A DNA stretch of 61,467 nt, taken from a virus. Taxonomy: Duplodnaviria > Caudoviricetes. The stretch lies in IMG/VR virus record IMGVR_UViG_3300010148_005374, positions 1-61,467 of that record. One strand, written 5' to 3'. Numbering within the stretch: position 1 is the first letter of the stretch; each line of letters opens with the position of its first letter. The notes beneath the pieces were generated by a model. The model was not told the origin of the DNA, did no database searches, and saw nothing but the letters and a program-made list of their open reading frames with translations. A program made the translations under genes and the position numbers. This document shows positions 39,223-54,013 of the stretch, piece by piece.

Positions 39223-40168
39223 TCATACTCCTGTTTTCTTCAAACCACTCAATCGTTTCTTGAATACCTTCTTCAAGGCTAATTGTTGTCTCGAACCCTA
39301 CTTCTTTTGCACGAGCAGAATCAAGGATTCTCTTCTTGTCCCCAGTTGGCTTGTCTGTCTGCCAGACTACATCAAGATCCTTAGGGCATTTGTCAACAAC
39401 GATATCCACAATCTGCTTGATTGCGATCCCTTCACCACTTCCAAGGTTAACAGGTTTTGTTACTTTATTGTCTACCATATGAAGCATACCCAAAGCTACA
39501 TCTCTGGAGTGGATAAAATCTCTAATCGGAGAGCCATCTCCCCAAACTTCCAGTTTATCGTTTTCAAACGCTTTGCGAATCAACGAAGGGATGACCATTG
39601 CATTCTCTGGGTCAAAGTTATCGTATGGTCCGTAAACGTTTGCGGGCCTTACAATTGAAACACAGTCCCAACCATATTGGATACTATATGCTTCTGCTTG
39701 CAACTCTCCAATTCTCTTAGCCCAGCCAGCAAACCTATCGTTGTTCGACGGAAAAGTTGACCAAACATCATCTTCTCTGAAGACTTCCGCTGGATGATAA
39801 ACGCCCACACTACTAGTATACAAATACCACTTTACTCCCGCACGCCTTGCTGCTTCCATCATATTGGTATTGAACTGGAGCATAGGAACCATAAAGTCTG
39901 CTGGCTGTTCCTTGCACATTTTTGGGGAGCCTTTAACGCCCACCAAGTTAAAAACATAATCCATACCTTCACAAACTTCCTGACAAGCAGAAAAGTCTGT
40001 AAGATCTGCAAGCTTGTACATCACACCGTCAGGCAGTCCCCTCGGAGGGTCCAAAGATACAACGTATACCTTAGCCCCTCTCTCCACTAACAGATCAACA
40101 AGTTGGCGACCTATCATTCCAGTCCCGCCAGTAACTAAAACACTTTGGTTTTTAAAATCAACAGTCAT
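39191..40168 (-). CDS. Extended SDR, GDP-fucose synthase / ColC-like
   Basis: VLVTGGTGMIG, YTSSVGVY, RPANVYGPYDNFD, VWGDGSPIRDFIH. The YxxxK position reads AGWAK. Confidence 0.75.
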   Translation of the reverse strand: MTVDFKNQSVLVTGGTGMIGRQLVDLLVERGAKVYVVSLDPPRGLPDGVMYKLADLTDFSACQEVCEGMDYVFNLVGVKGSPKMCKEQPADFMVPMLQFNTNMMEAARRAGVKWYLYTSSVGVYHPAEVFREDDVWSTFPSNNDRFAGWAKRIGELQAEAYSIQYGWDCVSIVRPANVYGPYDNFDPENAMVIPSLIRKAFENDKLEVWGDGSPIRDFIHSRDVALGMLHMVDNKVTKPVNLGSGEGIAIKQIVDIVVDKCPKDLDVVWQTDKPTGDKKRILDSARAKEVGFETTISLEEGIQETIEWFEENRSMIDDRHNAFRK

Positions 40169-41351
40169 TTATAACCTCACACAATTTAATAATATTTTCT
40201 TCTTCAAGTTCAGTATGGTTACCAATATAAAGCCCAAAATCATGTATGTGATCTGAGATTTCTAAGTCACCTACAATCCTATGATCGTACTTTTCTAGAT
40301 AAGGTTGTCTGGCTTGGTTGCCACCACCAGCAGTTCCAATGCGATACTCTACTCTTTCTTGTTGCAAAACAGAGCAGACTCTCTCAAACAAATCTTTATC
40401 TTTTTCTCTAAGAATTAGTGGCAGTGCAAAACTACTGTTTCCTTCTTCAAGATAGTTTGTTTGAAATTTGCTAGTATCTAAGTTACTAATCCAAGTCTTA
40501 AAATTTTCTGCTCTAATCGTAGCTGCCCTATCTAGCCTTCCTAATTGTTCAAGGCCCAACACAGCATTAAATTCTGTATTCCTCAAATTATAGCCAGGAA
40601 CAGCAAAAAGAAATAAAGGATTTAAGTCTGGGTATTTCGCTGTATATGTGTTATACACTTCATCCCCAGCTTCTCTAATCATTCCATGTGACCTAAACAT
40701 CTTTGCTAGCTCATAGATATTCTTGTCATTTGTGCAAACAACCCCGCCTTCAACTGTTGTAATGTGGTGCCCAAAATAAAAAGAAAAGTTTGACATATCG
40801 CCAACAGTTCCAATTTTTTTCCCATCAAACGTAGCGCCGTGAGACTCGCAACAATCCTCAATCAAAATTAGGTTGTGTTTTTCTGCAAGTTCTACAAGCT
40901 TGTCAGTCAAGCCATTAAAACCTAAGGCGTGAACAAGAACAATGCCAACTGTTTTGTCTGTGATTGCGTTTTCAATATTTTCAGCAGTGATGGCCAGACT
41001 TTCTGGGTCAACGTCTACAAACACAGGGGTCATCCCCAAATTGACTACTGGGGCAATATCAGAAACCCACCCAATGGGTGGAACAATAACCTCGCCATCT
41101 CCTTTAATCTCTTTCATAATTGAAGTCATAATGTAGTTGGCAGACGCACCAGAGTTTACAAAGACTGTATACTTAACTCCAAGCCAATCAGACCAAGCTT
41201 GCTCAAACTTTTTTACATACTTTGATTGAGTAAATCTAACATTCGGCTCTTGAAGCCACTTAATTAGAGCAGCTTTATCCTCCTCTGTTATATTGTCATT
41301 TATCAAAGGCCAGGAAAAACTATTTTGTTCCATAGAACTCTCCATGTTCAA
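40158..41351 (-). CDS. PLP/PMP-dependent GDP-4-keto-6-deoxymannose 3-dehydratase-like enzyme (ColD type)
   Basis: DegT fold (FVNSGASAN, EDCCESHGA) with SFYFGHHITTVEGG, where His replaces the Schiff-base Lys. No Fe-S Cys cluster. GYNLR. In the same cassette as gmd. The start may be 41345 or 41333. Confidence 0.75.
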   Translation of the reverse strand: MNMESSMEQNSFSWPLINDNITEEDKAALIKWLQEPNVRFTQSKYVKKFEQAWSDWLGVKYTVFVNSGASANYIMTSIMKEIKGDGEVIVPPIGWVSDIAPVVNLGMTPVFVDVDPESLAITAENIENAITDKTVGIVLVHALGFNGLTDKLVELAEKHNLILIEDCCESHGATFDGKKIGTVGDMSNFSFYFGHHITTVEGGVVCTNDKNIYELAKMFRSHGMIREAGDEVYNTYTAKYPDLNPLFLFAVPGYNLRNTEFNAVLGLEQLGRLDRAATIRAENFKTWISNLDTSKFQTNYLEEGNSSFALPLILREKDKDLFERVCSVLQQERVEYRIGTAGGGNQARQPYLEKYDHRIVGDLEISDHIHDFGLYIGNHTELEEENIIKLCEVINDC

Positions 41352-41856
41352 TTATTAATGTTGATTTTGAATCTGGTCTTTCATAAGCCTCCTTGAAGGC
41401 TGGGAATATATCCTCTGGCTCATAAAGATCAACAACATTTACCTCGGTTAACATTTTGCGAAAAGCCTCTGTATGATCCTGGGTATGTTGTGGTCCTGCA
41501 TCAATAGGGTTTTTTGTACCGACAGCAACCCTTATAATCACACGAGGAGTCATTTCTCCCTTTGACATATCTCTCATCTTATCAAGATGGTTTACTAGTT
41601 GATTACAGGCTAAGATAAAGAAATCAAATCGAGGATACATTGTGATTGGCACATATCCTTCTAGGGCCATCCCTGTTGAGATGCCCATCTGTGTTTCCTC
41701 AAACACAGGTAGTTCAATTCTTTTTTCATCGGGTACTTCAACTAGGGTGCTAGAAATTGCGTGTCCACTAACCTTACAAGCTTGCCCAAGAAATATTGTA
41801 TCTCTTTGTTTTGCAAGCCAGTTCATTGATCTGATAAGTTCGCTTTTATATTTCAT
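41320..41856 (-). CDS. ThDP-dependent enzyme, beta subunit (pyrimidine-binding domain only)
   Basis: IFLGQ, ELPVFEETQMG..GMALEG, NQLVNHL, GPQHTQ. No transketolase C-terminal domain. Start at 41856 (TAATG overlap). Confidence 0.8.
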   Translation of the reverse strand: MKYKSELIRSMNWLAKQRDTIFLGQACKVSGHAISSTLVEVPDEKRIELPVFEETQMGISTGMALEGYVPITMYPRFDFFILACNQLVNHLDKMRDMSKGEMTPRVIIRVAVGTKNPIDAGPQHTQDHTEAFRKMLTEVNVVDLYEPEDIFPAFKEAYERPDSKSTLIIEHGEFYGTK

Positions 41857-42482
41857 TAAAAATTTACCCACTTTCCTGTTCCGTGGTGAGGATATTCCAT
41901 TTCATACTTGTAATAAATAACGCCATCAGGCACCTCTTGTTTTTCACCCCAGGCCATATCTGTTGGAGTGTGGACGCTCATATCATTATCCTCGACAACC
42001 CACTGAATAGGTAGGTCAAAGTTCTTACTATATTTGTAAGCCTCGTGGAACACCCCTGTCTCCATAGTCATATCGCCAACAAAGCACCAAACACGATTGT
42101 TTTTGCCTTTTTGTTTGATCCCCAAAGCGACGCCTAATGCGAGAGGTATAATACCACCAACAATCGATGATGCATAAAAGTTTGGTTTTAGATTATTAGT
42201 TCCCATACTTCTTCCCTCTACAATTGAATTAAACAATTTGTCAGGATCAACTCCGTGCAAAAGAGCGTGATAATGGTTTCTCCAAGGAACAAAAACCCAG
42301 TCATCGGGACTTATATACTGAAATATTTCTATTAGTTCATTTTCATTATTCTTAGCTAGATGAATTGGTCCTTTAATTTTTCCGGCTTCATATGTCTCTT
42401 TAACTTTTGTCTCAAAATCAATTAGATCCTGAGGAGTCAAAGACACCTCTCTAACTTTCTCTAAATGGTTAGGTATGTTCAT
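41856..42482 (-). CDS. ThDP-dependent enzyme, E1-alpha-like subunit
   Basis: GPIHL, WRNHYHALLHG, SSIVGG, VGDMTMETGVFHE...VVEDN (variant of the GDG..N ThDP motif), YPHHG. Confidence 0.8.
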   Translation of the reverse strand: MNIPNHLEKVREVSLTPQDLIDFETKVKETYEAGKIKGPIHLAKNNENELIEIFQYISPDDWVFVPWRNHYHALLHGVDPDKLFNSIVEGRSMGTNNLKPNFYASSIVGGIIPLALGVALGIKQKGKNNRVWCFVGDMTMETGVFHEAYKYSKNFDLPIQWVVEDNDMSVHTPTDMAWGEKQEVPDGVIYYKYEMEYPHHGTGKWVNF

Positions 42483-42961
42483 TTATCCCTCGCCTGTAAA
42501 ATTGGATTGTCTATTGGCCAGTTTATACTAACACGAGTATCATTCCACTTTAAGGTAAATTGTTGATCAACATCTGAATACTGTCCTTCGTATGCTAGTT
42601 TGTAGCTAAAGACGGCAGAATCGCTCATAACACAAAAACCATTCCCAAAACCAGGAGGCAATAAAACCTGTCTTCTATCTTTGTCATCAAGCATCATACA
42701 ATCCCATTTCAAATAATTTTTTGATTCTTGTCGATTGTCAACTACAACAAAATACAATTCACCTTGCAGGCAACTTACTAACTTCCAAGTCTTATAGTCG
42801 CCATGAATTCCTCGTATAACATTTTTTCGAGAAGAAGAAAACTTATCGTGTACAAAGTTTAAATCTACTGGGAATGTATTCTTTTTATATGTTGTCCAGA
42901 TATCTCCACGATACTCCCTAAACATATCAGCTTCAAAAATTTTAACTTCTGAAAAAAGCAT
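42479..42961 (-). CDS. rmlC: NDP-4-keto-6-deoxyhexose 3,5-epimerase (RmlC family)
   Basis: EYRG, SRKNVIRGIHG, KLVSC..GE..FVVVD.R, LPPGFGNGF, WND....INWP. Confidence 0.8.
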   Translation of the reverse strand: MLFSEVKIFEADMFREYRGDIWTTYKKNTFPVDLNFVHDKFSSSRKNVIRGIHGDYKTWKLVSCLQGELYFVVVDNRQESKNYLKWDCMMLDDKDRRQVLLPPGFGNGFCVMSDSAVFSYKLAYEGQYSDVDQQFTLKWNDTRVSINWPIDNPILQARDK

Positions 42962-42963
42962 TG

Positions 42964-43362
42964 CTACCAGCTAATATCCCAGTCCTTAAAATCGGCAGCT
43001 AAACAATCTATCTTATAATCTTTTCGTCCGCCAGCAATCTCTTGAATTTTATTTTTGGCCGTATTACGAATACCATTAAGACCGTGAGTTAATTCCAAGT
43101 TGTTACCATCCTTTATACCTTTTCTATAATTTGATTCGTTATGCCAAATATGAAGATTCATCTGGGATAATACAACCACGGCTCTGATAACTTCTGCGTC
43201 TACATTTTTTGTTTCTTTTAGACACAAATCTATATCGTGAACAATGTCTTTAATCTCTTGTGCATATTCTTCTTTGTGATCAGTAATAAACACCTCTTTA
43301 AGTTGGGCGATAGACAGCCTATCAATCAATTCTGAGAGTGTTGGTAAATATTTTCTAGTCAT
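42964..43362 (-). CDS. Hypothetical helical protein of glycan loci (DUF4254/DUF6165-like)
   Basis: 132 aa with LSELIDRLSIAQLK...NLHIWHNE...LNGIRN..KNKI, a pattern recalled from these DUF families (not searched). Confidence 0.55.
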   Translation of the reverse strand: MTRKYLPTLSELIDRLSIAQLKEVFITDHKEEYAQEIKDIVHDIDLCLKETKNVDAEVIRAVVVLSQMNLHIWHNESNYRKGIKDGNNLELTHGLNGIRNTAKNKIQEIAGGRKDYKIDCLAADFKDWDISW

Positions 43363-44278
43363 CTAGTAGCTCCGGAAATTCGTTTATTAAGTTTGTAGCA
43401 AAAGTATCATCCATTGAGATGTATTTTTTAGCTAGCTCATAGTTTTCTTTAACTGCATCAAGTTTACTTTCGTACAAGTTTTCAGAAAGATTGTCAAGTA
43501 TATTAAAAAGCTCTTGCCCTGTGTTAAAATGTAAAATACCGTCTTCATTAAAATATTCACCAATATTTGGACAGCCCCAAAAAATTGGAATTGTACCCTG
43601 TCGGAACACATCTACCAAAGTTTCTGTAAAATAGTTTTTTTCACTCGAATTCATAATCGTAATACTGAATCTGTAATCCTGTAGAGGTTCGTTTTTTCCC
43701 TCTCTAATGGCTCCAGCAGTTCTTCCAGATATGCTTTTCCCAAAGGGTTGATATCCACCACCCCACATATCAACTTCATACCTACCCTTAATAGCTTCTG
43801 CTACTTTGTGTCTCAGTCTGTGTCCACGGGTTAAAACTTGTTTAGACGCAATCATTGATAGCATTTTACTCTTTTTATGAATACCCGCATCCTCATGTGA
43901 GACCCTCGATGTGCCGATCAGGTTTTTAACATACTTGTCACCTCTTGACAATAACTCCTCATCAAAAGTAAAAATCTTATCAAATTTGTGCTCAACTCGC
44001 TTAATTTGTTCGTAGGCCCAATCATGTACCCCACGACACTCAACAATAAAAGCAACCTTGCGTTTTGACTTAACTTTATCCACCCAAGGGTCAACTAAAT
44101 TTTTATCGGTAAACACTGTAATACCGTTAAATTCTGGATATCCCATTCCAATACTTTGCTTCATCCATTCAATCTTTTGAGGTTCAAATTCGCTTGAAAA
44201 ATTGTGGAAGCCCCAAAATTCATCATAAAATTCTGGAGTGAGATTATCAAATAAATTTACCTTTACTTTTTTAGTCAC
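43355..44278 (-). CDS. Glycosyltransferase family 10 (alpha-1,3-fucosyltransferase-like)
   Basis: YRFSITIMNSSEKNYFTETLVD.F..GTIPIFWGCPNI is a divergent GT10 motif. Also SMIAS.K....GHRLR. Confidence 0.75.
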   Translation of the reverse strand: MTKKVKVNLFDNLTPEFYDEFWGFHNFSSEFEPQKIEWMKQSIGMGYPEFNGITVFTDKNLVDPWVDKVKSKRKVAFIVECRGVHDWAYEQIKRVEHKFDKIFTFDEELLSRGDKYVKNLIGTSRVSHEDAGIHKKSKMLSMIASKQVLTRGHRLRHKVAEAIKGRYEVDMWGGGYQPFGKSISGRTAGAIREGKNEPLQDYRFSITIMNSSEKNYFTETLVDVFRQGTIPIFWGCPNIGEYFNEDGILHFNTGQELFNILDNLSENLYESKLDAVKENYELAKKYISMDDTFATNLINEFPELLDD

Positions 44279-44636
44279 CTTTTACCACCCTATAACTGTC
44301 ACTATCAAAATGTTGTGTTGAAAACTCAAATAATTCTGAATCTTCTAACGCTATCATTTGATGTCTTAGTCCCACATAAACATAGAAGTTATCTCCTGGG
44401 TTAAGGACCACTTCTTTTGCTTCGTCAAGACTATCTGTGTCTCCATACTTTACAATCATTCTACCAGACTGCAAGTAAAAAACTTCATCTTTTATTTTAT
44501 GATAATGCCAAGAGCATCTTTTATCTTTGTTAAAGAATAGTAACTTGCCACAATACTCCTCTTTGTTAACGATCCAACGTTCAAAGCCCCAGCCTTTGTC
44601 AACGTGTTTCATATCTAGTGAAACTTTGTTTACCAT
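44271..44636 (-). CDS. Cupin-fold sugar(-phosphate) isomerase-like protein
   Basis: KGWGFERWI...YCGKLL...CSWHYHKIKDEVFY...RHQM...EFST. Confidence 0.75.
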   Translation of the reverse strand: MVNKVSLDMKHVDKGWGFERWIVNKEEYCGKLLFFNKDKRCSWHYHKIKDEVFYLQSGRMIVKYGDTDSLDEAKEVVLNPGDNFYVYVGLRHQMIALEDSELFEFSTQHFDSDSYRVVKGD

Positions 44637-45457
44637 ACTGTTTTACCACCATCAATAACCATATTCTCACCAGTCATATAGGTGCTAGCATCCGAGCACA
44701 GAAATGCAATCGCACCTTTATATTCATCAATATGGGCCATTCGACCCATTGGGATAATATTAGATAATTTCTTAACAAATTCCTCTGGGTGATCATTGTA
44801 GACACCTGTTGGACTTAGGCAATTAACTCTAATGTTTTTATTTGCAAAATATACGGCCAGATATTTTGTCATGCCAATAATAGCCCACTTCGCTGCTGAA
44901 TATGTAATTGGCTTAACATTTTGCATATCTTCTGCAACGTCTGGCTTTCTATAAATTCTTTGATCTGGGGCGATGACACCAAGGTCAGAGGAGATATTAA
45001 GAATTACACCCCTTTGGTCATTCTCTAGCATTTTGTTAGCAGCAACTTGCGAACAAATAAAAGTTCCGTTAACGGCTGCATCAATACCCTCTGACCAATA
45101 CTCTTGAGACATTGTTTCAAACCTTGAGTCTGGTTTAAGTCCACCGCCCTTTTTAACCTTTGGATCTTTGGCTGCATTGTTAATCAAAATATCAATGGTA
45201 TCATATTTTGAAAATACTTGTTCAACTTCGCTCTTGTTTGTTACATCCATACGATGAGAAGTAGCTACAAGTTTACCATATTTTTTATTCAACTCTTCTG
45301 CTCTGGTAATTGCTCGATCCTCGTGATGATCTGTTATGACCACCTGTGCTCCACATTCAATTAGTGCCTCTGCATGTTTTGGCCCCAGCAATCCACCGCC
45401 GCCAGTTATTAGTGCTGTTTTACCAGTCAAATCAAATAAGTCAGGAGTTCGTTGCAT
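44630..45457 (-). CDS. Classical SDR oxidoreductase (PtmA-like)
   Basis: ITGGGGLLG, LINNAA, NISSDLG, YSAAK, RVNCLSP. Start placed at ATG 45457. Confidence 0.85.
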   Translation of the reverse strand: MQRTPDLFDLTGKTALITGGGGLLGPKHAEALIECGAQVVITDHHEDRAITRAEELNKKYGKLVATSHRMDVTNKSEVEQVFSKYDTIDILINNAAKDPKVKKGGGLKPDSRFETMSQEYWSEGIDAAVNGTFICSQVAANKMLENDQRGVILNISSDLGVIAPDQRIYRKPDVAEDMQNVKPITYSAAKWAIIGMTKYLAVYFANKNIRVNCLSPTGVYNDHPEEFVKKLSNIIPMGRMAHIDEYKGAIAFLCSDASTYMTGENMVIDGGKTVW

Positions 45458-46214
45458 GATATATCCTTTCAAAAATATTCTTATGCTGTTTCATAGTCAT
45501 CAATTCAGAGCCCGTAACACCACGAGCAGTCTGCATAGTGTATAGGTTATTATAGTTTAGGGTTGACAAAGTGTTAAAAATCTCATCAAACGGAGTATCG
45601 CCGCTAAGTGGGATAACAGTTTTTGCGTCAAATGTCCTGTCCTTCAAATGAACGTTACTTATCCTGCTGTGTGTTTTTTGGATATAATCCTTATGGTCAA
45701 TCCTTTCAGAGGTTATGTTTCCTGTATCATAGGTAATCCAAAAATTATTACTTTCCTTAACTATATCTAAAACATTCTCTGCTGTAGTTTCGGCCTCAAA
45801 CGAGAAATTTAACCCTGGGTATTTGTCAGCATATTTTAGTATTTCTTGTTTAAATGCTTGTCTTCTTTGTGTGTCGTATATGGCACTCTTCTCTAGTAGT
45901 GGAACTGTAACCCACATCACTTTATTGTCAATAGCAGCTTTACAGATTGGGTCTAAGTTATCACGCAAAAATCCACTTTGAGTGAATCGATCATCAACAA
46001 GATTATCAGCACATAGTGAACTGATAGGAAATCTAGAACAATCCTTAGAGAAGATTGCATTATAACCAAAAGATCTAGTTGTTACAATCCACTCAATGTG
46101 GTTCAGTCCTAAGTTTTTTGCCCTATCAAACTCCTCTTCCCAACAAACTGGAAATTCTTGAATACCACCGTCTTCAGGTCTAAGTAATCTTCCTTGTATC
46201 ATTCCAAGTTTCAT
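45441..46214 (-). CDS. Xylose-isomerase-like TIM barrel (hexulose/ribulose-phosphate 3-epimerase-like)
   Basis: LGMIQGRL, IEW, FEAE, YDTGN, VHLKDR. Confidence 0.75.
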   Translation of the reverse strand: MKLGMIQGRLLRPEDGGIQEFPVCWEEEFDRAKNLGLNHIEWIVTTRSFGYNAIFSKDCSRFPISSLCADNLVDDRFTQSGFLRDNLDPICKAAIDNKVMWVTVPLLEKSAIYDTQRRQAFKQEILKYADKYPGLNFSFEAETTAENVLDIVKESNNFWITYDTGNITSERIDHKDYIQKTHSRISNVHLKDRTFDAKTVIPLSGDTPFDEIFNTLSTLNYNNLYTMQTARGVTGSELMTMKQHKNIFERIYHATNS

Positions 46215-46636
46215 CAAATTTCCTCCACTAGTTCTATAAAAGTTCCATCGGGATCTTTACAAAAAACAACCCTTGCAAATCCATCTGGTGAATATTGTGG
46301 CTCACTAACAAACTCAACTCCTGTTAACACAAGGTCGTTATATGTTTTTTCTAAATTGTCAACAGTCATAGCAAAATGAGTGCAACCAATATTGGTTAAC
46401 CTGCCTGGTGTCGGCATCTCCTGGTGATTTTTAAAATGAAGAAGTTCCACCATCCCCCCATCCCTCAAGCTCATTTTAACTGTATTGACCTCGCCATTAT
46501 CTATAGAGAGTAAACTATCAATGTAAGGGCCAGACTCTATCATATCTTTTTTTATCTCAAACCCCAGACTCTTGTAGAAGGCTATGGACCTCTGCATATC
46601 TGTTACAACTATTCCAGTATGTCTAATGTTTAACAT
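46214..46636 (-). CDS. VOC/glyoxalase-family protein
   Basis: RHTGIVVTDM..S..FY..LGF, VELL, THFAMTV, FCKDPDGTFIELVE. Confidence 0.85.
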   Translation of the reverse strand: MLNIRHTGIVVTDMQRSIAFYKSLGFEIKKDMIESGPYIDSLLSIDNGEVNTVKMSLRDGGMVELLHFKNHQEMPTPGRLTNIGCTHFAMTVDNLEKTYNDLVLTGVEFVSEPQYSPDGFARVVFCKDPDGTFIELVEEI

Positions 46637-46638
46637 GA

Positions 46639-47904
46639 CTAAATGTTCTTATTGATACATTGCTCTATTACATTAAAAGCTTCGTTAATAGCTTCAATGG
46701 GTAAAGTTAATGGTGGTCCTAATTTTATTGACTCTCTAAAAGTGCAGACTGGTAGGACTCCATTTTCAATACAATCAGTAACAATTTTGTTCGTTCTTTC
46801 TGTTGTATCAAAAACAATACCAGCCACCATACCCCTAGCGTTAACATTAGTAACACAATCATAGTCAAGAAGTTTATGACTTCTCTTTTCAAAAACCTGT
46901 ATTCTTTTATTAAGTTCCTTTTGAAACTTTTTATCTGTTAAGAATTTTATGTTTGCTAGACAAGCTGCACACCCCAAAGTATTTCCGGCGTGTGTGCCAC
47001 TTAGATTAGCGTTTAAATCGACATCAATAATTTCTTTTGTTCCAAGTATAGCTGACATAGGAATTGACGAAGATATGCCTTTTCCAAGACAAATAAGATC
47101 TGGCTCTATGTTATCACCATAGGTCATGTATCCATATAACTCACCCATCCTATAGAACCCTGATTGAACCTCATCAAAACAAATAAGTGCTCCATTGTCT
47201 CTTGCAAACTTATAAAGAGCTTGAATATATTGAGGTGGGTACATCCAGGCGGCCCAGCCTTGATACGTCTCTAGGAAAAATGCTGCGATCTGATCAGCAG
47301 GTGGTAGGATATTAGGATCAAACTCAACATCTGGATCTACAGGAAAGTCTATAAACACCACATCATCATCTACCATAGAAGACCATTCTGTTGCATCTTT
47401 AGACCCACATATAAAGGCCGACCCGAGAACTCTTCCGTGATAACTACCGTTAAAAGTTATAATATATTTTTTGTTATTCTTTTTTGCCCAAGATTTAACC
47501 AGTCGATAGGCTGCATCAGTAGCTTCAGAACCAGTATTAAGAAGTATCGATTTTTCAAAGTGATTAGGAGAAACCTCTAAAAGCTTGTTAACATATTCCT
47601 GTCTTATCTCGGTTATATACTGGTAGGCGAATATTAGATCAGAATCAACCTGATCTTTGATAGCTTTTTTAATTTGTGGATTAGCATGACCAGCATTAGT
47701 GACAAATATGCCAGAAGTCATATCAATCCATTTGTTGCCATCCTTATCAAAGACATTATAATCGTATGCACGATCCCAAACGACCGGCACTTGGTGTCCG
47801 TTTGCTTCGGTCTCTGTAGAGTATCGCTTATCGTGTAATTTGTTTTTCTTTAAACTGTAGCCATTGTTTATGGATCTATGATTTGTTTTTACTTTTTGCT
47901 TCAT
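46639..47904 (-). CDS. Class-III PLP-dependent aminotransferase
   Basis: DKDGNKWIDM..G...NAGH, NTGSEA, SYHG, FDEVQSGF.R.G, PDLICLGKG. Confidence 0.9.
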   Translation of the reverse strand: MKQKVKTNHRSINNGYSLKKNKLHDKRYSTETEANGHQVPVVWDRAYDYNVFDKDGNKWIDMTSGIFVTNAGHANPQIKKAIKDQVDSDLIFAYQYITEIRQEYVNKLLEVSPNHFEKSILLNTGSEATDAAYRLVKSWAKKNNKKYIITFNGSYHGRVLGSAFICGSKDATEWSSMVDDDVVFIDFPVDPDVEFDPNILPPADQIAAFFLETYQGWAAWMYPPQYIQALYKFARDNGALICFDEVQSGFYRMGELYGYMTYGDNIEPDLICLGKGISSSIPMSAILGTKEIIDVDLNANLSGTHAGNTLGCAACLANIKFLTDKKFQKELNKRIQVFEKRSHKLLDYDCVTNVNARGMVAGIVFDTTERTNKIVTDCIENGVLPVCTFRESIKLGPPLTLPIEAINEAFNVIEQCINKNI

Positions 47905-48616
47905 TTAATTTATCCAACAACTTATGACCTCTTGTGGCCAGATGATAATCTATAAGTTCAAACTCATACTCAGTGTCAACCTCCAAAACAAAATCAGTGA
48001 TTATAGGCAAGACCGTTTCTCCAAACGCATCACCATCTTGAAGTGTAACTCTTTTTACAATGTCTAAATAACCATTTGGTTGGTAGGCTGCTGGAAACAC
48101 TTGTCTTGGTAAGTTTGTGTAATTTTTTTCTCCTTTGAAGTCTTCAAAAAACCCACAACAATAACCGTTCTTATCAAGTTGAAACATCTTATGAGGAGAT
48201 TCAGGCAACTTGTGCATTGACCTTACGCCAGTCGAAACAAGTATCTTAGTATGAAAATATCTTTTAATCTCTTCGTCTATGACTTCTGGATCTCTTAGAG
48301 GCGTAGTAGGCCTGACATAAGCAATATCAGACCCCCCTAGAGAATCAAAATAATGTTGTATTACTTCCTCATCCCTAGATCGGTCACCAGCTAATTCAGA
48401 TGGCCTTAAGAACGGAACCTCTGCCCCATACTGTAAGGCCACATTAGCGATTTCTTGATCGTCTGTAGATACAATAACTTTATTGATCATTTTCGATTGC
48501 TGGCAAGCAATGATCGAATAAGCTATTAGCGGGTGACCGTGAAGGAGTTTAATATTCTTCTTGGGTAAACCTTTACTGCCGCCCCTTGCAGGTATTAGAG
48601 CATCTATTTTACTCAC
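47876..48616 (-). CDS. neuA: Acylneuraminate (nonulosonic acid) cytidylyltransferase
   Basis: IPARGGSKGLPKKNI, VSTDD, PFLRP.ELA, PTTPLR, YQPNG, EVDTE. Confidence 0.9.
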   Translation of the reverse strand: MSKIDALIPARGGSKGLPKKNIKLLHGHPLIAYSIIACQQSKMINKVIVSTDDQEIANVALQYGAEVPFLRPSELAGDRSRDEEVIQHYFDSLGGSDIAYVRPTTPLRDPEVIDEEIKRYFHTKILVSTGVRSMHKLPESPHKMFQLDKNGYCCGFFEDFKGEKNYTNLPRQVFPAAYQPNGYLDIVKRVTLQDGDAFGETVLPIITDFVLEVDTEYEFELIDYHLATRGHKLLDKLNEAKSKNKS

Positions 48617-49449
48617 AGAGTATCTACCTTTCGTAGCTTCTCAGCGATAGATACTTCAGTATCCATGACCCTCTTTTCAGGCGAGCCCATACAGGCAATG
48701 ATATCTCTAACATAATCCATCATTCTTTTAAGTCCAACAACCTCCAAGGACGCAGACTGATCTGATCCATACATCGCCCGATCAAGAGTAATGTGTCTTT
48801 CCAAAGATGAGGCACCAACAGCAACAGCAGCACAACTAATAATGATACCTGTTTCGTGGCCACTATATCCAACATTACAGCCGTACCTATTTTGCAGCGT
48901 GTGCATCACACGAAGATTTGCATCTTCAAGTTGCATTGGGTAGGTACTGTTACAATGCATAAGCTCAAAAGAGCAGTCATGGCTTTTAAAGATTTCAACT
49001 ACTTTATCAATTTGCTCAAGTGTGCTCATCCCAGTAGAAATAAAAGTATGCTTCTTTTCGGATGCAATTTCTTCTAGAAGTTCTCTGTGTGTAAGCATAG
49101 CCGACGCAACTTTATTGTATTTGCAATTAAACCGACGCATGAAAATTTGACTATCAACATCCCAGGCAGATGCGAACCATTCAATATTTTTTTCTTTACA
49201 ATATGCATCAATCTGCTCGTAATCAGATTCGGTAAACTCTAGCCCAAGTTTTTGTTCTCTATTTGTTGTCCCCCAGGGACTCTCTCTTGGTTTATCAAGC
49301 TCTTCTTTCGTGTAAACCTTATCAATAGTTCTCTTTTGAAATTTTACCGCATTGCATCCTGCTGCTGCGGCCTCATCAATAAGTTGTTTGGCAATATCCA
49401 GACTGCCGTTATGGTTAATACCAATTTCTGCAATTACAAAAACACTCAT
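48613..49449 (-). CDS. neuB: Nonulosonic acid synthase (NeuB family, lacking the C-terminal SAF domain)
   Basis: IAEIGINHNG, AVKFQKR, KVAS, STGM, MHCNSTYP, GYSGHE, ERHITLDR.MYGSDQ.AS. Only 278 aa. Confidence 0.9.
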   Translation of the reverse strand: MSVFVIAEIGINHNGSLDIAKQLIDEAAAAGCNAVKFQKRTIDKVYTKEELDKPRESPWGTTNREQKLGLEFTESDYEQIDAYCKEKNIEWFASAWDVDSQIFMRRFNCKYNKVASAMLTHRELLEEIASEKKHTFISTGMSTLEQIDKVVEIFKSHDCSFELMHCNSTYPMQLEDANLRVMHTLQNRYGCNVGYSGHETGIIISCAAVAVGASSLERHITLDRAMYGSDQSASLEVVGLKRMMDYVRDIIACMGSPEKRVMDTEVSIAEKLRKVDTL

Positions 49450-50399
49450 ACCAGTAAATCTCCTTTGGTAAATTCATCATACCATGCTTCTTTGTTTAGG
49501 TTAATAATTTTTGCACCTTTTAGAGCGGCGCTTTCTCTTAATATTTTCATATCATCAAGTAAGAAATCCTTGTAGACATATCTCCAGTGTCCAATCTGTG
49601 CTACATTAGGGATATAGTAGTTCTTATCTTCTGGGTAACCGTCAGCGTAGCCTAAAGAATAATCTAAATCAAGTCCAACAATGTAGATATTTTCAAACCC
49701 CATAAGGATAGCCAAAGCAACACAAAAAAGACCAACAGTTTGTCCCACGCCACAATGACGTTCGTGGCCTGAGTATTCTTGGAGTTTCTCCTGCAAAGTA
49801 AGACTGCCATCCCTGAGGTGGCAACAATGTCCTGTCTTTGACCATCCGCCAGCTAGACCTGCATGTACCTGCGCACACCACTGGTTGACATTTTCATTCT
49901 TAATATCGGGCACTTGCCACATTTGCTTATTGTTGCCATAATATTCAAAATCAAGGTTTTTATTTTCTTCATAATATTTTTTGAAGTTTTTCAAAACCTC
50001 AATACAACTGTGCCCCTTGAAATGTTTATTATCATAGGGAAGATATTCAAAGTCAAGATTATCTTCAACAAACGCTGGGTCTGTTAAGTCAGCCGCACGA
50101 TTATATATCAGAGGCACCTTATAAGTATTAAAAACATCAATGGGGTAATCCCTAATCTTCCAGACATTCTCATTTAGTATAGAATCACGAATATTAAATT
50201 CTGTGTTGGATACAACCCAATAGTCGGGCTTTGTGCTAAAATAATCAAACCACTCGTTGACAGAAAACCTGGTTATCTTTTTACTCTTTTGTAGCTCTTG
50301 TATCTTTTCGATATACGGCGCTAAACTTGGTCCGTGCAACGCTATAACACAAGACTGTCCTTTGTGTTTATCTACAATATCGTCAAAAGTTAGTTTCAT
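49446..50399 (-). CDS. Maf/DUF115-like putative nonulosonic-acid transferase
   Basis: KHKG..CVI..HGPSL, FSVN, PDYWV, TVG...ALAILMGFENIYIVGLD pattern shared by Maf/GT42-like proteins. Coupled to neuB. Confidence 0.65.
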   Translation of the reverse strand: MKLTFDDIVDKHKGQSCVIALHGPSLAPYIEKIQELQKSKKITRFSVNEWFDYFSTKPDYWVVSNTEFNIRDSILNENVWKIRDYPIDVFNTYKVPLIYNRAADLTDPAFVEDNLDFEYLPYDNKHFKGHSCIEVLKNFKKYYEENKNLDFEYYGNNKQMWQVPDIKNENVNQWCAQVHAGLAGGWSKTGHCCHLRDGSLTLQEKLQEYSGHERHCGVGQTVGLFCVALAILMGFENIYIVGLDLDYSLGYADGYPEDKNYYIPNVAQIGHWRYVYKDFLLDDMKILRESAALKGAKIINLNKEAWYDEFTKGDLLV

Positions 50400-50402
50400 A
50401 TA

Positions 50403-51353
50403 TCACCAAATAAAATTTTTCTTGTAATAGTCTACAATGGATTGTATCTCATTGTCAAATATTTTTTTAGGCTTCCATCCAAGTTTTCTAATTTTTTCGT
50501 CATTTAGACAATACCTTACATCTTGTCCTTTCCTCACATAAGAATAGTCAATATGTTCTTTCCAGTCAACGTCAGTTCCATAAAATGCCTTTATAATCTT
50601 TCTAACAGTTTCAGAATTTTGCTGCTCAAAGTCTCCCGAAACGTTGTATATCTCATTTACGACTTCATTGTCAACCAAGGTTAGAACGGCCTCAGCAGTA
50701 TCATCTGCATGTAACCAATTTCTGATTGGAGTGCCGTCATTATGAAGAGAAATCTTTCTGCCTCTAAGTAAGTTTTTCACACTAAGAGGAATTAATTTTT
50801 CAGGGTATTGTCTAATTCCATAATTGTTAGTAGGTCTAACTATCAAATACTGCAAATCATAAGTTCTAGACCAAGCTAACACAAGCATATCGGCTGCGGC
50901 TTTCGCTGCTGAGTACGGATTACTTGGATGCAATAAATCATCTTCAGTGTGGTGTCCCTCTAAGATATCACCATAAACCTCATCTGTACTAATGTGAAGA
51001 AATATAGGCCTTTTACCACAGTTCTTTGGCTTGAACCTAACGAGATCTAATAGGTTTTTGGTGCCCACAATATTTGTGTTTATGAACTCATCACTATTTA
51101 TTATGCTATTCCCAACATGAGATTCGGCGGCAAAATTGACCACATAATCGCAATCACACAAAGAGTTAAGATCTTTTATGTCAGCTTTTAAAAACTTAAA
51201 GTTATCATATGTGTTCAACTGCTGTAAAAGAGACTCGTTAGCCGCATATGTAACTTTGTCAATCCCATACACCATCCATCCTCTCTCTAAACATTTAAGG
51301 ACAAAATATGAAGGAATAAAACCCAAACACCCTGTTACACATAATATTTTCAT
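50403..51353 (-). CDS. rmlB: dTDP-glucose 4,6-dehydratase
   Basis: VTGCLGFI, DKVTYA, NFAAESHV, HISTDEVYG, PSNPYSAAKA, NNYG.RQYPEKLIP. Start placed at ATG 51353. Confidence 0.85.
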   Translation of the reverse strand: MKILCVTGCLGFIPSYFVLKCLERGWMVYGIDKVTYAANESLLQQLNTYDNFKFLKADIKDLNSLCDCDYVVNFAAESHVGNSIINSDEFINTNIVGTKNLLDLVRFKPKNCGKRPIFLHISTDEVYGDILEGHHTEDDLLHPSNPYSAAKAAADMLVLAWSRTYDLQYLIVRPTNNYGIRQYPEKLIPLSVKNLLRGRKISLHNDGTPIRNWLHADDTAEAVLTLVDNEVVNEIYNVSGDFEQQNSETVRKIIKAFYGTDVDWKEHIDYSYVRKGQDVRYCLNDEKIRKLGWKPKKIFDNEIQSIVDYYKKNFIW

Positions 51354-51354
51354 G

Positions 51355-52704
51355 TTACCTTTTGCTGAAGAATTCATCCACGACCCCTTCAATATAATTT
51401 ATCTTCTCATCTGTTACACCAATAAAAGTTCCCAAGAAAAAAGATCCAACTGTTGCCTTATAAGCATTTGGAAAACGTTCTTTAATATTATCATATCTCT
51501 TAGCGTAATCCACATAAGCAGGATGATATAAACAATTACCAGCAAAATAAGATCTTGTCTGTATCTTATTGGATTCAAGATGCTTAACAAAATCTTCTCT
51601 AGTAAAACCACTGTTGTCTTTGACAGTCAATAAAAAACCAAACCAATTAGGGTCAGACTTATCAGTTTTTTCTGGAAGCATAAAATACTCTTCATACTTC
51701 GAGAATATTTTCTTTAGTGATTTAAAGTTTCTTCTTCTAGCATCATCCATATCTTGCAATTTATCTAACTGCTTTAATCCTATGGCGGCTTGCATCTCTA
51801 ATGGCTTAAGATTGAAACCTATCTCATCAAAAACATACCTATGATCATAGTTTATTCTCTCTTTACCATCTTTAAGCCAAGGCCTAAACCTGTTCCCGCA
51901 AGCCGTGCCTGCCGTAACATCTCCTGGTTTTTGCTCGTTACAATAACAAGCCCTGCCCCAATCTCTGAAACTAGCTAAGACTCTCCTTAGCCGAGGATCG
52001 TCAGTCGCTACAAACCCTCCTTCACCCATAGTCATATGATGTGCGGGATAAAAAGAACAAGTTGACATCAATCCAAATGATCCTAATTTCTTTCCATCAT
52101 AAAAGGAACCCATAGCATCACAAGAATCCTCTAAAAAAATTAAATTGTATTTATCAACTAAATGCATTAACCTGTCCATATCAGGAGGGTTTCCTAAAAC
52201 GTGAGCAAATATAATACCCCTGATACTACTATCTTTCTTCAAAGCATCTTCAACCTGGTCTAGGTTGAGATTCAAAGAAGGCAAGTCAACGTCTACAAAT
52301 ACTGGCTCGAATCCTGTTTGTATAATCGGGTTTAGAGTTGTAGGGAAACAAACCACTGGGGTTATAAACTTACTACCCTTAGGTAAATGAAACTTTTTCA
52401 TAAAGCTTTTTTTGCTAGTCAAAGCTTGGGTCATAATAAGGTTTGCTGAACTTCCAGAATTTGTCAGCATCCCAAAATTCTTGCCTAAAAACATTGGGAA
52501 AGTTTCTTCAAACTCTCTCGCTTTTTTACCAAAAACAAGCCAACCATCAAGAATAGCTGATACAGCTTCTCTAAATTCTACGGAACTAAAATTAGGCCCT
52601 GAGTAATTTACCCAATCTCCTGGAGTCCACGATTTACGAAGCAAGTTCTCTTCTGCGTACTCTTCTACAAGAGACAATATTTTTTCTAGCTTTTTGTCCT
52701 TCAT
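51355..52704 (-). CDS. rfbH: NDP-4-keto-6-deoxyglucose 3-dehydrase E1 (RfbH/DdhC/SpnQ type)
   Basis: NSGSSAN, FPTTLNP, EDSCDAMG, SFYPAHHMTMGEGG (His in place of Lys), RDWGRACYC...CG Fe-S motif, YDHRY. Confidence 0.85.
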   Translation of the reverse strand: MKDKKLEKILSLVEEYAEENLLRKSWTPGDWVNYSGPNFSSVEFREAVSAILDGWLVFGKKAREFEETFPMFLGKNFGMLTNSGSSANLIMTQALTSKKSFMKKFHLPKGSKFITPVVCFPTTLNPIIQTGFEPVFVDVDLPSLNLNLDQVEDALKKDSSIRGIIFAHVLGNPPDMDRLMHLVDKYNLIFLEDSCDAMGSFYDGKKLGSFGLMSTCSFYPAHHMTMGEGGFVATDDPRLRRVLASFRDWGRACYCNEQKPGDVTAGTACGNRFRPWLKDGKERINYDHRYVFDEIGFNLKPLEMQAAIGLKQLDKLQDMDDARRRNFKSLKKIFSKYEEYFMLPEKTDKSDPNWFGFLLTVKDNSGFTREDFVKHLESNKIQTRSYFAGNCLYHPAYVDYAKRYDNIKERFPNAYKATVGSFFLGTFIGVTDEKINYIEGVVDEFFSKR

Positions 52705-53540
52705 TTACAAACCTCATTTAAACCCTGGATAAATCCAACAAAAATATCCCTTGGAAACGTTTTATTAAAAGTTTTTGAACTACCTGTATAGTTTTTTACG
52801 TCTTCATTTTTTAGGATGAGATTAGGATTATGAGACCCTAATCTATTCTCTACTATATCAGATATTTGCTTTAAGTTAAATTTTTCTGGGTAGGTAAGAT
52901 TGACATCTCTGGGTAGATCTTGTTTTTTAAAATTGGAAATATAAAAGCCTATAGCTCGACAAACGTCTTGGTCATAAAAAAAGTCCATCTCTTTTTTAGC
53001 ATCAATGGTAACTTCTGTATTTTTTTCAATACCAGATTTTAATACCTTGATTAATCTATTTTCCTCTTCGTTTTTACCAAAACAGCCAAACAGCCTAAAG
53101 TTGTAAAGATGTTCATTTAGTTCTACTATCTTTCTTGAGATTACATTCTTAGAACGGCCATAATAATCTGATGGCAGTTGGTCATAGATTCTTGATTCTT
53201 CGAAGTTTGATATATCTCTTGCCCTATCAAACTCAGCACCCGAACCAAAATTTATCAAAATTGAATACTGGTCTTTGTTATTAAGAAGATTGTTAAACAT
53301 CTTGAGGTTTGTAACATAATCTTCTGGGTTATCTTTGTGATTTCTTCTGCCACCTTTAACCGCAGTGTGTAAAACTATATCGACACTATGGTCTTGTAAA
53401 AAATTCTTGACCTTGTTTGGGTTCGAGACATCTAGTTCTTGCCTAGTACAAGCTAGGGTATTATAGCCCTTAGAAGAAAAATATCTGTTTAATGATTTCC
53501 CCAGGAAACCATTAGCACCTGTAATGAGAATCGTATTCAT
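52701..53540 (-). CDS. NAD-dependent sugar epimerase/reductase
   Basis: ITGANGFLG, LHTA, FGSGAE, YGRSK, RLFGCFG. Confidence 0.8.
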   Translation of the reverse strand: MNTILITGANGFLGKSLNRYFSSKGYNTLACTRQELDVSNPNKVKNFLQDHSVDIVLHTAVKGGRRNHKDNPEDYVTNLKMFNNLLNNKDQYSILINFGSGAEFDRARDISNFEESRIYDQLPSDYYGRSKNVISRKIVELNEHLYNFRLFGCFGKNEEENRLIKVLKSGIEKNTEVTIDAKKEMDFFYDQDVCRAIGFYISNFKKQDLPRDVNLTYPEKFNLKQISDIVENRLGSHNPNLILKNEDVKNYTGSSKTFNKTFPRDIFVGFIQGLNEVCK

Positions 53541-54013
53541 CTGCTAAGGTTCATATAGTTTGGTCTACCATCAAAAAGGTAGTCATCAATATTTTGTTCA
53601 AGAGATTCTTCGTCAGATGGCCAGATAGATTTTATGTTAGAAAAATTAGACATTACTTTACTATCATCCTCTGCCCAATGAGAGAAGCCCAAGTAACCAT
53701 AGTCTTTTTCTCTGCCACCTCCAAGTAATTTAACAGGTATCTTTTCATGGTCAATGTAGTTCCTGATGAACTCATACGGACGATATAAAACAAAAGGAGT
53801 TATTGAGTACACAACGGGTATGATACCAGAGGTAGCCATTCCGCAAGCAGCGCCGACCATTAGTTGTTCAGAAGAACCAAAATTATGAAACCTATTTGGG
53901 AAGTCTATTTTTATTCTGTCCCAAAGTCCATAACCAAGATCACCTGTCAACAAGTGTATCTCGTTGTGTTCTGCCATTTTTGTATGCAATAAGTTACTAA
54001 ACTTTTTTCTCAT
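53537..54013 (-). CDS. Split transketolase, pyrimidine-binding subunit (no C-terminal domain)
   Basis: LLTGDLG, P.RF.NFG.SEQ.MVG.A.G.A..G, YSI.PF...R.YE.IR, GFSH. 158 aa. Confidence 0.8.
   Translation of the reverse strand: MRKKFSNLLHTKMAEHNEIHLLTGDLGYGLWDRIKIDFPNRFHNFGSSEQLMVGAACGMATSGIIPVVYSITPFVLYRPYEFIRNYIDHEKIPVKLLGGGREKDYGYLGFSHWAEDDSKVMSNFSNIKSIWPSDEESLEQNIDDYLFDGRPNYMNLSR

Follow-up and report, generated by a model that had tools for sequence, protein, structure and literature searches.

The stretch of DNA considered here is the IMG/VR virus record IMGVR_UViG_3300010148_005374 (Duplodnaviria; Caudoviricetes), the whole of which, 61,467 nt, is referred to as the window. The element of interest is a cassette of eight open reading frames (ORFs) at positions 44271 to 50399, encoding a NeuB-family synthase, a NeuA-like cytidylyltransferase, a class-III aminotransferase, a VOC protein, a TIM barrel, a short-chain dehydrogenase/reductase (SDR), a cupin, and a Maf-like transferase. 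The original prediction had described these genes as a noncanonical nonulosonic acid pathway, and all eight were found where it placed them, each in the expected family. All long ORFs of the window lie on the minus strand, and neighboring genes of the cassette either overlap by 4 to 32 nt or are 2 to 3 nt apart, a packing which, judged from the sequence, fits a single translationally coupled operon. The DNA similarity of the cupin gene (67 to 74% identity) and that of PhoH indicated a relationship to the T4-like myoviruses of Synechococcus and Prochlorococcus. When the whole block was searched at the DNA level against the phage collection, the only matches were to the cupin, plus one under the SDR. 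The CheckV completeness of the record was 34%; since the window thus represents only about a third of the phage genome, the enzyme absences reported below hold for this fragment only.

The synthase gene (positions 48613 to 49449) encodes a protein of 278 residues that was assigned to the NeuB family of phosphoenolpyruvate (PEP)-aldose condensing synthases from its match to PF03102 (240.1 bits versus a cutoff of 22.1). No match to the SAF domain was found, and the protein stops at residue 278. Its scores were under both equivalog cutoffs, namely, 248.9 versus 399.65 for TIGR03569 (N-acetylneuraminate synthase) and 187.6 versus 340.25 for TIGR03586 (PseI), and its closest PDB match was 6ncs, a 290-residue NeuB. 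The 120 closest NeuB protein clusters listed from a collection of 5.8 billion proteins were all at least 70% identical, were 255 to 290 residues long, and contained PF03102 only. Residues E25, K129, H215, E234, and H236 of the Neisseria meningitidis enzyme were retained as E8, K113, H198, E217, and H219, respectively, and the counterparts of E25, E234, H215, and H236 were invariant in the clade; H215 and H236 are presumably metal ligands. In the accessible text of a survey of the family, E25, E134, and E234 are candidate catalytic residues, R314 of the SAF domain binds substrate, and the SAF-less NeuBs of environmental bacteria have a Trp at the position of N. meningitidis F112 (PMC8208679). 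The window NeuB shares with that group both the missing SAF domain and the Trp (W96 aligns with F112), and it differs in having a nonacidic residue at the E134 position and an invariant C-terminal KLR; the survey, in whose text the words "phage" and "virus" each occur 0 times, includes no phage sequences and assigns no product (PMC8208679). The KLR motif (K271-L272-R273) was invariant in 12 of 12 sequences, which suggests that this C terminus, standing in place of the SAF domain, may supply the missing arginine. Further invariant basic residues were observed at R40, R55, and K67.

The adjacent cytidylyltransferase (positions 47876 to 48616; 246 residues) resembles the CMP-ulosonate synthetases NeuA and PseF. 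This was deduced from its match to PF02348 (CTP_transf_3; 88 bits), from the PARGGSKG motif at its N terminus, and from its best NCBIfam match, PseF TIGR03584, although the score of 125.7 bits was below the cutoff of 205.7. In an uncultured bacterium known from a metagenome-assembled genome (MAG), a SAF-less NeuB module has as its direct neighbor another NeuB, which is canonical, contains the SAF domain, and is accompanied by a separate cytidylyltransferase (L024:11988-14775; L numbers denote the loci compared in this work). Since both types stand side by side in that locus, the two synthases are deduced not to be redundant.

The aminotransferase (positions 46639 to 47904) was assigned to the class-III (omega-type) pyridoxal phosphate-dependent enzymes from its match to PF00202 (Aminotran_3; 235.2 bits versus a cutoff of 30.5). 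Its best PDB matches were acetylornithine, gamma-aminobutyrate (GABA), ornithine, and putrescine aminotransferases, at E values of 5e-45 and weaker. K275 was invariant in a six-sequence alignment and, from its motif context, is the probable Schiff-base lysine. The gene that follows (positions 46214 to 46636; 140 residues) encodes a metalloenzyme of the VOC/glyoxalase fold (PF00903; 62.7 bits), which is a candidate epimerase or isomerase and whose PDB relatives were weak (E value of 1e-5).

The third accessory protein (positions 45441 to 46217; 258 residues) is a xylose-isomerase-like TIM barrel that narrowly exceeded the AP_endonuc_2 cutoff (31.6 versus 31.1 bits). A PDB sequence search was uninformative for this protein, as it was for the VOC protein and the cupin. 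The structural model was of high confidence (predicted local distance difference test [pLDDT] score, 93), and its top Foldseek match was the L-xylulose-5-phosphate 3-epimerase UlaE (E value, 9e-13; query template modeling [TM] score, 0.82 to 0.83), with further matches to ketose 3-epimerases, to Art22, and to the 3-keto-glucoside 4-epimerase YcjR. The protein is therefore a candidate sugar keto-epimerase, in line with the TIM-barrel epimerase of the original prediction, as far as a model can indicate. Ketose 3-epimerases use a Glu-Asp-His-Glu metal-binding and catalytic set in which the catalytic Glu occupies the fourth position. E141, D164, and H190 of the TIM barrel were invariant, and the fourth conserved position was an invariant Gln (Q229), the positions being equated by motif order and not by superposition. 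A profile search placed 794 representatives in this family at E values of 1e-30 or below.

The remaining accessory genes encode a classical SDR oxidoreductase (positions 44630 to 45472; 280 residues; adh_short_C2, 147 bits), in which both the TGxxxGxG and YxxxK motifs are present, and a small cupin (positions 44271 to 44636; 121 residues; Cupin_2, 32.1 bits; phrog_7851, E value of 3.6e-57). The best NCBIfam match of the SDR was NF006619, named simply "oxidoreductase" (164.8 bits versus a cutoff of 255). NF006619/PRK09186 is probably the flagellin modification protein A model, and on that basis the SDR could be labeled "PtmA-like." The SDR adjoins the TIM barrel in every locus that has a TIM barrel. 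For the cupin, subthreshold matches to D-lyxose isomerase (E values of 0.0045 to 0.017) are consistent with a sugar or sugar-phosphate isomerase, which it may be.

The last of the eight genes (positions 49446 to 50399; 317 residues) encodes an MptE/Maf-like protein (PF01973; 44.0 bits versus a cutoff of 34.6) that is a candidate CMP-ulosonate transferase. A PDB sequence search with this protein found nothing, and its AlphaFold model was of moderate confidence, with a mean pLDDT of 69.9 and one-third of the chain poorly predicted. The top VIA-align match of the model was the Maf glycosyltransferase 5mu5 (Z score, 14.7; root mean square deviation, 3.6 Å over 209 residues; residues 260 to 511 of the chain), followed by the MptE kinase (Z score, 12.2) and by bacterial and human sialyltransferases (Z scores, 8 to 10.7, the bacterial enzymes being at about 10 to 10.7). 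The top Foldseek match was the sialyltransferase CstII at an E value of 1e-6, and its low TM scores (0.37 to 0.48) are attributed to the poorly predicted third of the model. The protein corresponds to the central catalytic domain of Maf only, the N- and C-terminal domains being absent (317 versus about 630 residues). The Maf-like transferase of the original prediction thus agrees, at the level of the model, with the Maf catalytic core.

The gene sets required for the canonical routes to N-acetylneuraminic acid (Neu5Ac; NeuC-NeuB-NeuA), to pseudaminic acid (Pse), and to legionaminic acid (Leg) were incomplete within the window. Epimerase_2, the family of NeuC and LegG, was not matched anywhere in the record, nor was it found in five of five related phage records (81 to 172 kb; 23 to 61% complete) or in four of four Patescibacteria genomes with the module (completeness not given). 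The NCBIfam cutoffs for PseB, PseC, LegB, and LegC were reached by none of 31 proteins of the surrounding sugar-metabolism island, and PseG, PseH, and NeuC were not listed for any of these 31 proteins at E values of 1e-5 or below. The best score in the window for the PseB model was 39 bits against a cutoff of 407.75. The LegB model scored at most 154.7 bits (cutoff, 475), on a protein scoring higher as Gmd, and the LegC model scored at most 148.5 (cutoff, 420). Acetyltransferase families were not found among 50 scanned ORFs of the window (at least 70 residues each). These results uphold the claim that NeuC, PseB/C/G/H, and LegB/C/G are absent from the window and, together with the NeuB scores, the description of the pathway as noncanonical.

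The cassette is flanked by two DegT-family genes and by several SDRs resembling 4,6-dehydratases. The PseC model gave 183.6 and 156.9 bits (cutoff, 423.5) on the two DegT-family proteins, in both of which the Schiff-base Lys is replaced by His-His. One of them was above the RfbH cutoff (463 versus 423 bits), and the other best matched ColD (190 bits). Because of the His-His replacement and these matches, both were deduced to be 3-dehydrases, leaving the class-III enzyme as the sole aminotransferase of the island.

To place the cassette among its relatives, IMG/VR was searched with the aminotransferase, yielding 10 loci with 57 to 97% identity; four of these (L004 to L007) were near-identical, so that the set represents about six lineages. 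NeuB, NeuA, the aminotransferase, the VOC protein, and the cupin were present in the same order in all 10. The TIM barrel and an SDR of the window type were retained in four. A gap of approximately 0.7 to 1 kb after the aminotransferase was found in nine of the loci and, where it was scanned (phage loci L004 and L010 and cellular locus L017), it held an S-adenosylmethionine (SAM)-dependent methyltransferase gene. An RfbH gene and a dehydratase gene also accompanied the cassette in 10 of 10 loci.

A NeuB profile matched at least 559 IMG/VR stretches, and the best 80 of these gave 79 loci for examination. Genes were counted by tblastn at 60% coverage or more, and the counts are therefore lower bounds in which divergent NeuA is undercounted. 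In this census, NeuA and the cupin were each found in 38 loci, a small HAD-like gene in 35, a window-related SDR in 33, and the VOC protein in 25. Less frequent were the aminotransferase (18 loci), the TIM barrel (14), and the Maf-like gene (10). Pfam searches added CTP_transf_3 matches in unlabeled genes of three loci (L054, L062, and L065) and MptE-like matches in two (L065 and L083). The arrangement NeuB-SDR-TIM-SDR-cupin without an aminotransferase was observed in L062 and L083, and L054 adds the VOC protein. In two further loci, the amination function appears in another form. L050 contains NeuB, a DegT aminotransferase with its Lys, an SDR 58% identical to that of the window, a HAD gene, and a cupin, and L001 contains an SDR with 48% identity, a cytidylyltransferase-like gene, a Lys-bearing DegT aminotransferase, NeuB, and a HAD gene. 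Since a class-III enzyme occurs in some loci and a Lys-bearing DegT enzyme in L001 and L050, amination was deduced to be an optional tailoring step carried out by two unrelated aminotransferase families.

In L056 (positions 9992 to 11251), a SAF-less NeuB is fused in frame at its C terminus to an orthologue of the cupin (74% identity over 119 residues), giving a protein of 419 residues in which the cupin occupies the place of the SAF domain in canonical NeuBs. In L052 and L065, the cupin directly follows NeuB. A word search for fused TIM barrels among longer proteins returned none, which is weak evidence, and an exhaustive profile search later found fusions. The 150 best TIM-barrel representatives included a CTP_transf_3-TIM fusion (P0232), a VOC-TIM fusion (P0235), and two TIM-TIM tandems. 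Through the NeuB-cupin, cytidylyltransferase-TIM, and VOC-TIM fusions, the accessory enzymes are connected with the ulosonic acid route. With the conserved synteny in distant lineages, these fusions bear out the earlier proposal that the accessory genes belong to the pathway. The cupin was also considered as an unrelated backbone gene, an explanation that was dropped given the in-frame fusion in L056 and its position next to NeuB in L052 and L065; the gene belongs to the backbone of cyanophage sugar islands and, in some phages, is linked to NeuB. A gene of the DHDPS family, which includes the sialic acid lyases, and PhyH-type dioxygenase genes were observed beside NeuB, the cupin, and NeuA in three loci (L052:11887-12843, L056:11251-12009, and L062:15786-16700), a hint of further tailoring or aldolase chemistry.

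The cellular set came from a profile search in which each prokaryote species was represented by one genome, and it comprised 14 loci. In the 10 with at least 47% aminotransferase identity, mostly from Patescibacteria, NeuA was found within 10 kb of the aminotransferase in 9 and NeuB in 8; the two loci without NeuB were a 2.2-kb contig and a contig ending just past the aminotransferase. Two Lachnospiraceae loci with only 33 to 34% aminotransferase identity carried a NeuB 62 to 63% identical to that of the phage, together with NeuA, a TIM barrel, a VOC protein, and two SDRs. The MAG contigs L017 (labeled Pelagibacter) and L015 (labeled Maricaulis) share a large part of their gene order with the phage (for L017, the cupin as well), and they may be misbinned phage DNA. 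A KdsC-type HAD gene (Hydrolase_3) was present in L014, L016, and L019 and was fused to SIS_2 in L022. SIS_2 was also found in L020, and KpsC/S-type Capsule_synth transferases were found in L021 and L022. These additions suggest a route that starts from a sugar phosphate and ends in a CMP-ulosonate, following the logic of Kdn (ketodeoxynonulosonic acid) and Kdo (ketodeoxyoctulosonic acid) rather than that of Neu5Ac, Pse, or Leg. The cellular loci also contained B12-binding radical SAM enzymes and methyltransferases; an aldo-keto reductase gene stood beside the aminotransferase in seven, and the surroundings included surface-polysaccharide genes (Wzy_C, ABC/Wzt, and Capsule_synth).

From the enzyme families and folds, the intact catalytic motifs, the tight packing, the recurrence, and the fusions observed, we infer a sequence of chemical steps. 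The SAF-less NeuB would condense PEP with a host-derived aldose or aldose phosphate other than an N-acetyl or diacetamido hexose, and any phosphate on the product would be stripped by a HAD-type phosphatase. A single hydroxyl of the resulting ulosonic acid would then be oxidized to a ketone by the SDR, after which inversion of the neighboring stereocenter or stereocenters through an enediolate would fall to the UlaE-like TIM barrel and the VOC protein. The class-III aminotransferase would convert the carbonyl to a free amine; in sister phages, its gene is directly followed by that of a methyltransferase. The NeuA-like enzyme would form the CMP-sugar, and the short Maf-like transferase would load it onto an acceptor in the cytoplasm, the phage tail or baseplate proteins being the likeliest. 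The oxidation followed by transamination is the most economical reading of the SDR and aminotransferase genes. Overall, we give an even chance to the interpretation of positions 44271 to 50399 as a self-contained operon for a CMP-activated, oxidized, epimerized, and aminated ulosonic (sialic acid-like) sugar. The "KDN-like" nature of the sugar, the position of the amination, and display on virion proteins, all part of the original prediction, are best regarded as inferences.

Several observations weigh against this interpretation. In the 6 of 10 aminotransferase loci without the TIM barrel and the window-type SDR, a different SDR (25 to 28% identity) occupies their place. The TIM barrel and SDR occur with NeuB in the absence of the aminotransferase in L062 and L083, so that supplying the aminotransferase cannot be the sole purpose of the SDR; the aminotransferase is itself optional, being detected in 18 of 79 NeuB-anchored phage loci. 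The invariant Q229 in place of the catalytic Glu implies that the chemistry of the TIM barrel may differ from that of the ketose 3-epimerases. The counterpart of N. meningitidis E134 is lost from the window NeuB, in which M118 aligns with this position (variable in the clade). The cupin was matched in 25 phage records and any NeuB in only 3 phage records, so that phages without a NeuB carry the cupin too. No KdsC-type phosphatase (Hydrolase_3) and no SIS isomerase were found in family scans of the window, and in three related phage records the Hydrolase_3 gene sits approximately 22 kb off the cluster. The pairing of the aminotransferase with aldo-keto reductases in cells fits deamination followed by reduction as well. 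The earlier claim that the SDR and aminotransferase aminate or epimerize the sugar stands in part. Oxidation followed by transamination is supported by the replacement of the class-III enzyme by a Lys-bearing DegT enzyme beside an SDR homologue (48 to 58% identity) in two loci, and the aminotransferase is not a constant component of the SAF-less NeuB cassettes.

A phosphatase for the second step may be provided by a small HAD-like protein with a DIDDT motif (positions 35084 to 35443, minus strand; phrog_1238, E value of 2.8e-27; no Pfam match), which is a possible sugar-phosphate phosphatase. A homologue stands immediately after NeuB in L001 and after the cupin in L008 and L009. In the window, the gene adjoins a split HldE-like kinase and nucleotidyltransferase, so that it may belong to heptose synthesis rather than to the cassette, in which its place is uncertain.

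The nature of the acceptor was considered separately. The baseplate module (positions 1 to 33,349, minus strand) was recognized by gp25, PF04965, and PHROG baseplate wedge matches and contains two giant minus-strand ORFs (positions 9752 to 20542, 3,596 residues, and 24270 to 30857, 2,195 residues) which have no Pfam family and adjoin the sugar island; both are candidate glycosylation targets. The alternative is that the sugar is attached to a host structure (lipopolysaccharide, an S-layer, or a pilus or motility protein), blocking superinfection or changing the cell surface. Maf and CstII enzymes are known to act on bacterial flagellins and lipooligosaccharide, as judged from the names of the matched PDB entries, and the cellular homologues lie in surface-polysaccharide loci with Wzy_C, ABC/Wzt, and Capsule_synth. 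On the other hand, no protein among the 33 of the island has more than one hydrophobic 19-mer, so that all of them look soluble from their sequences. A scan of the island for the Wzx, Wzy, and polyprenyl-phosphate transferase families found none, and thus it has no flippase, polymerase, ligase, or lipid-carrier transferase; it does adjoin the baseplate module and the two giant ORFs. Cytoplasmic modification of a host protein is nevertheless compatible with both the soluble proteins and the baseplate adjacency, and a host acceptor, less probable than a virion one, is a serious rival.

Slightly less probable, though still a serious rival, is that the tailoring precedes the condensation. In this case the SDR, TIM barrel, VOC protein, cupin, and aminotransferase would remodel a common sugar phosphate to an unusual, possibly aminated aldose, to which NeuB would then add PEP. 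The product would still be a new CMP-ulosonic acid, with its amino group brought in by the precursor, in the manner of Leg and Pse synthesis. This order is favored by UlaE, the nearest structural match of the TIM barrel, which works on a ketose phosphate, and by the cupin, with its subthreshold matches to a sugar isomerase and its fusion to NeuB in L056. SIS_2 isomerases in the cellular loci L020 and L022 also point this way, and a NeuB without the E134 counterpart and with the invariant R40, R55, and K67 would fit a different, perhaps charged aldose. However, the cytidylyltransferase-TIM fusion (P0232) puts the TIM barrel at the activation step and not at the start of the route, and for this reason tailoring after condensation was favored. 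Furthermore, no N-acyltransferase that could protect a 2-amino aldose was found in the scanned ORFs of the window, and every one of the aminotransferase's top matches in the PDB and NCBIfam is an omega-aminotransferase that acts on distal amines of carboxylic acids, which suits an acid substrate.

It is improbable that host precursors are converted to one of the ordinary nonulosonic acids (Neu5Ac, Kdn, Pse, or Leg), with the aminotransferase, VOC protein, TIM barrel, and SDR constituting an unrelated neighboring pathway. NeuB and NeuA alone could finish a host pathway, the aminotransferase was undetected in 61 of the 79 SAF-less NeuB phage loci, and the island is highly mosaic. Against this, the accessory genes are linked to NeuB and NeuA across phages, Patescibacteria, and Lachnospiraceae and are joined to the route by the VOC-TIM, cytidylyltransferase-TIM, and NeuB-cupin fusions. 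The NeuB itself falls under the NeuB and PseI equivalog cutoffs and lacks both the SAF domain and E134, and Epimerase_2 is missing from all four module-bearing Patescibacteria genomes. Finally, the proposal that the class-III enzyme deaminates an omega-amine (ornithine-, acetylornithine-, or polyamine-like) to an aldehyde, which NeuB and PEP would convert to a noncarbohydrate 2-keto-3-deoxy acid, agrees with the best matches of the enzyme (acetylornithine, ornithine, GABA, and putrescine aminotransferases) and with its cellular pairing with aldo-keto reductases, the usual aldehyde reducers, but is rendered the least probable by companion genes that are sugar enzymes (the UlaE-like fold, SIS_2, the KdsC-type HAD, the CMP-transferase, and the Maf-like transferase) and by the DegT-type sugar aminotransferases that stand in for the class-III enzyme in L001 and L050.

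The preferred interpretation, tailoring of a condensed ulosonic acid, can be compared with known systems. The phosphate route to CMP-Kdn in Bacteroides thetaiotaomicron consists of a Kdn-9-phosphate synthase, a Kdn-9-phosphate phosphatase, and a CMP-Kdn synthetase. Like the cassette, it combines a NeuB-family synthase with a CMP-transferase and has no NeuC, Pse, or Leg precursor genes. The cassette differs in lacking a KdsC-type phosphatase (the small HAD-like gene is 9 kb off) and the SAF domain of NeuB and in adding the SDR, TIM barrel, VOC protein, and aminotransferase. The route to 8-amino-Kdo (Kdo8N) in Shewanella, in which the oxidase KdnB, an iron-type alcohol dehydrogenase, and the transaminase KdnA act on eight-carbon Kdo made by KdsA, follows the same logic as that proposed here, oxidation of a hydroxyl of the finished ulosonic acid and then transamination. 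The enzymes themselves differ, being a class-III aminotransferase, an SDR, and NeuB in the cassette and a DegT-type KdnA, an iron-type KdnB, and KdsA in Shewanella. The original prediction had given KdnA as a class-III enzyme, and this is corrected here. KdnA (PDB 5k8b) matched a DegT-family query at an E value of 1.2e-35 and was not among the 60 listed of 106 chains matching the class-III query (E values of 1e-20 or below).

For the oxidation and epimerization, the closest analogy is to the YcjS/YcjR/YcjQ-type systems and ketose 3-epimerases such as UlaE, in which a dehydrogenase works alongside a xylose-isomerase-like TIM barrel that inverts a carbon adjacent to a ketone. In the cassette, an SDR takes the dehydrogenase role, an ulosonic acid is the presumed substrate, the aminotransferase probably traps the keto group, and the barrel has the invariant Gln. 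The transferase is similarly comparable to Maf (5mu5) and to the GT42 enzymes CstI and CstII. It contains PF01973 (Maf), and its model superposes on the Maf core (Z score, 14.7) and on CMP-sialic acid transferases (Z score, about 10). It differs from Maf in length (317 versus 632 residues), and since the phage has no flagellin, the acceptor must differ as well. In gene content, a closer published parallel than Kdo8N is provided by the group I polar-flagellin islands of Aeromonas, where pseF and pseI, beside maf, are interspersed with genes for a class-III aminotransferase, an aldo-keto reductase, a HAD hydrolase, and a methyltransferase (PMC7874193). These additions are the same set as in the cellular relatives described here. 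In contrast to the phage, Aeromonas has the full PseB/C/G/H route (PMC7874193), and the additions there would thus tailor pseudaminic acid. Undescribed ulosonic acids do exist, as unassigned CMP-activated forms with a backbone of more than nine carbons have been described for Magnetospirillum in a preprint (SugarBase, 2026).

The cassette lies within an unbroken sugar-metabolism island (approximately positions 35,084 to 58,775), after which come an exonuclease-like gene and PhoH. Immediately upstream of the cassette (positions 50403 to 54641, minus strand) are genes for a dTDP-glucose-4,6-dehydratase-like protein, an RfbH/E1-type 3-dehydrase (the protein scoring 463 versus 423 bits), an RmlD-like reductase, and a transketolase encoded as two genes, which looks like a route to a 3,6-dideoxy and possibly two-carbon-branched hexose. 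On the other side (positions 36523 to 42961, minus strand), a Gmd-like dehydratase, two Fcl/GalE-like SDRs, a ColD-like 3-dehydrase with His-His, a split pyruvate dehydrogenase E1 alpha/beta-like pair, and an RmlC-like epimerase suggest a colitose-like sugar with a thiamine-dependent branch, and this deoxysugar set is followed by a GT10-like transferase (positions 43355 to 44278). At positions 35084 to 36523 (minus strand), the phrog_1238 protein (105 to 119 residues) is encoded beside two separate genes for an HldE-like heptose kinase and nucleotidyltransferase. Because this protein has the HAD-type DIDDT start and no SIS domain, the PHROG label of "phosphoheptose isomerase" is probably wrong, and a phosphatase is more likely. 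Elsewhere in the window, a 518-residue ORF of the baseplate region (within positions 1 to 33,349, minus strand) has a VanY/M15-type peptidase domain and the PHROG label "endolysin." A 223-residue ORF between the exonuclease-like gene and PhoH (positions 59599 to 60270, minus strand), with homologues at the same position in L060 and L062, gave a subthreshold Pfam match to the anthrax lethal factor N/C-terminal domain (24.4 bits versus a cutoff of 27.4; E value, 2.7e-5).

In literature searches covering few subscription journals, no paper linking cyanophages to a nonulosonate synthase was found, nor was a characterized class-III aminotransferase working with NeuB, beyond the mention in the Aeromonas gene map. 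The module is a conserved but biochemically uncharacterized variant of the CMP-ulosonic acid pathway, here in a cyanophage. A bolder and more tentative proposal, which we consider distinctly less probable than the operon itself, is that abundant ocean cyanophages carry a complete, host-independent route to a hitherto undescribed amino-ulosonic acid, in which the NeuB product, perhaps not with a nine-carbon backbone, undergoes late oxidation, epimerization, and transamination and a minimal Maf-type enzyme decorates the phage's own giant baseplate or fiber proteins. If true, this would mean a charged sugar coat on the virion that alters adsorption or recognition. Recognition at the surfaces of cells and viruses is governed by sialic acid-like sugars, for which only a few biosynthetic routes are known. 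The module is common, the SAF-less NeuB relative being present in at least 559 IMG/VR stretches, and one solved cassette would name the product for many phage, Patescibacteria, and environmental loci. It would also add a late-stage amination chemistry to ulosonic acid biosynthesis and would put to the test the idea that marine phages carry acidic sugars on their virions.

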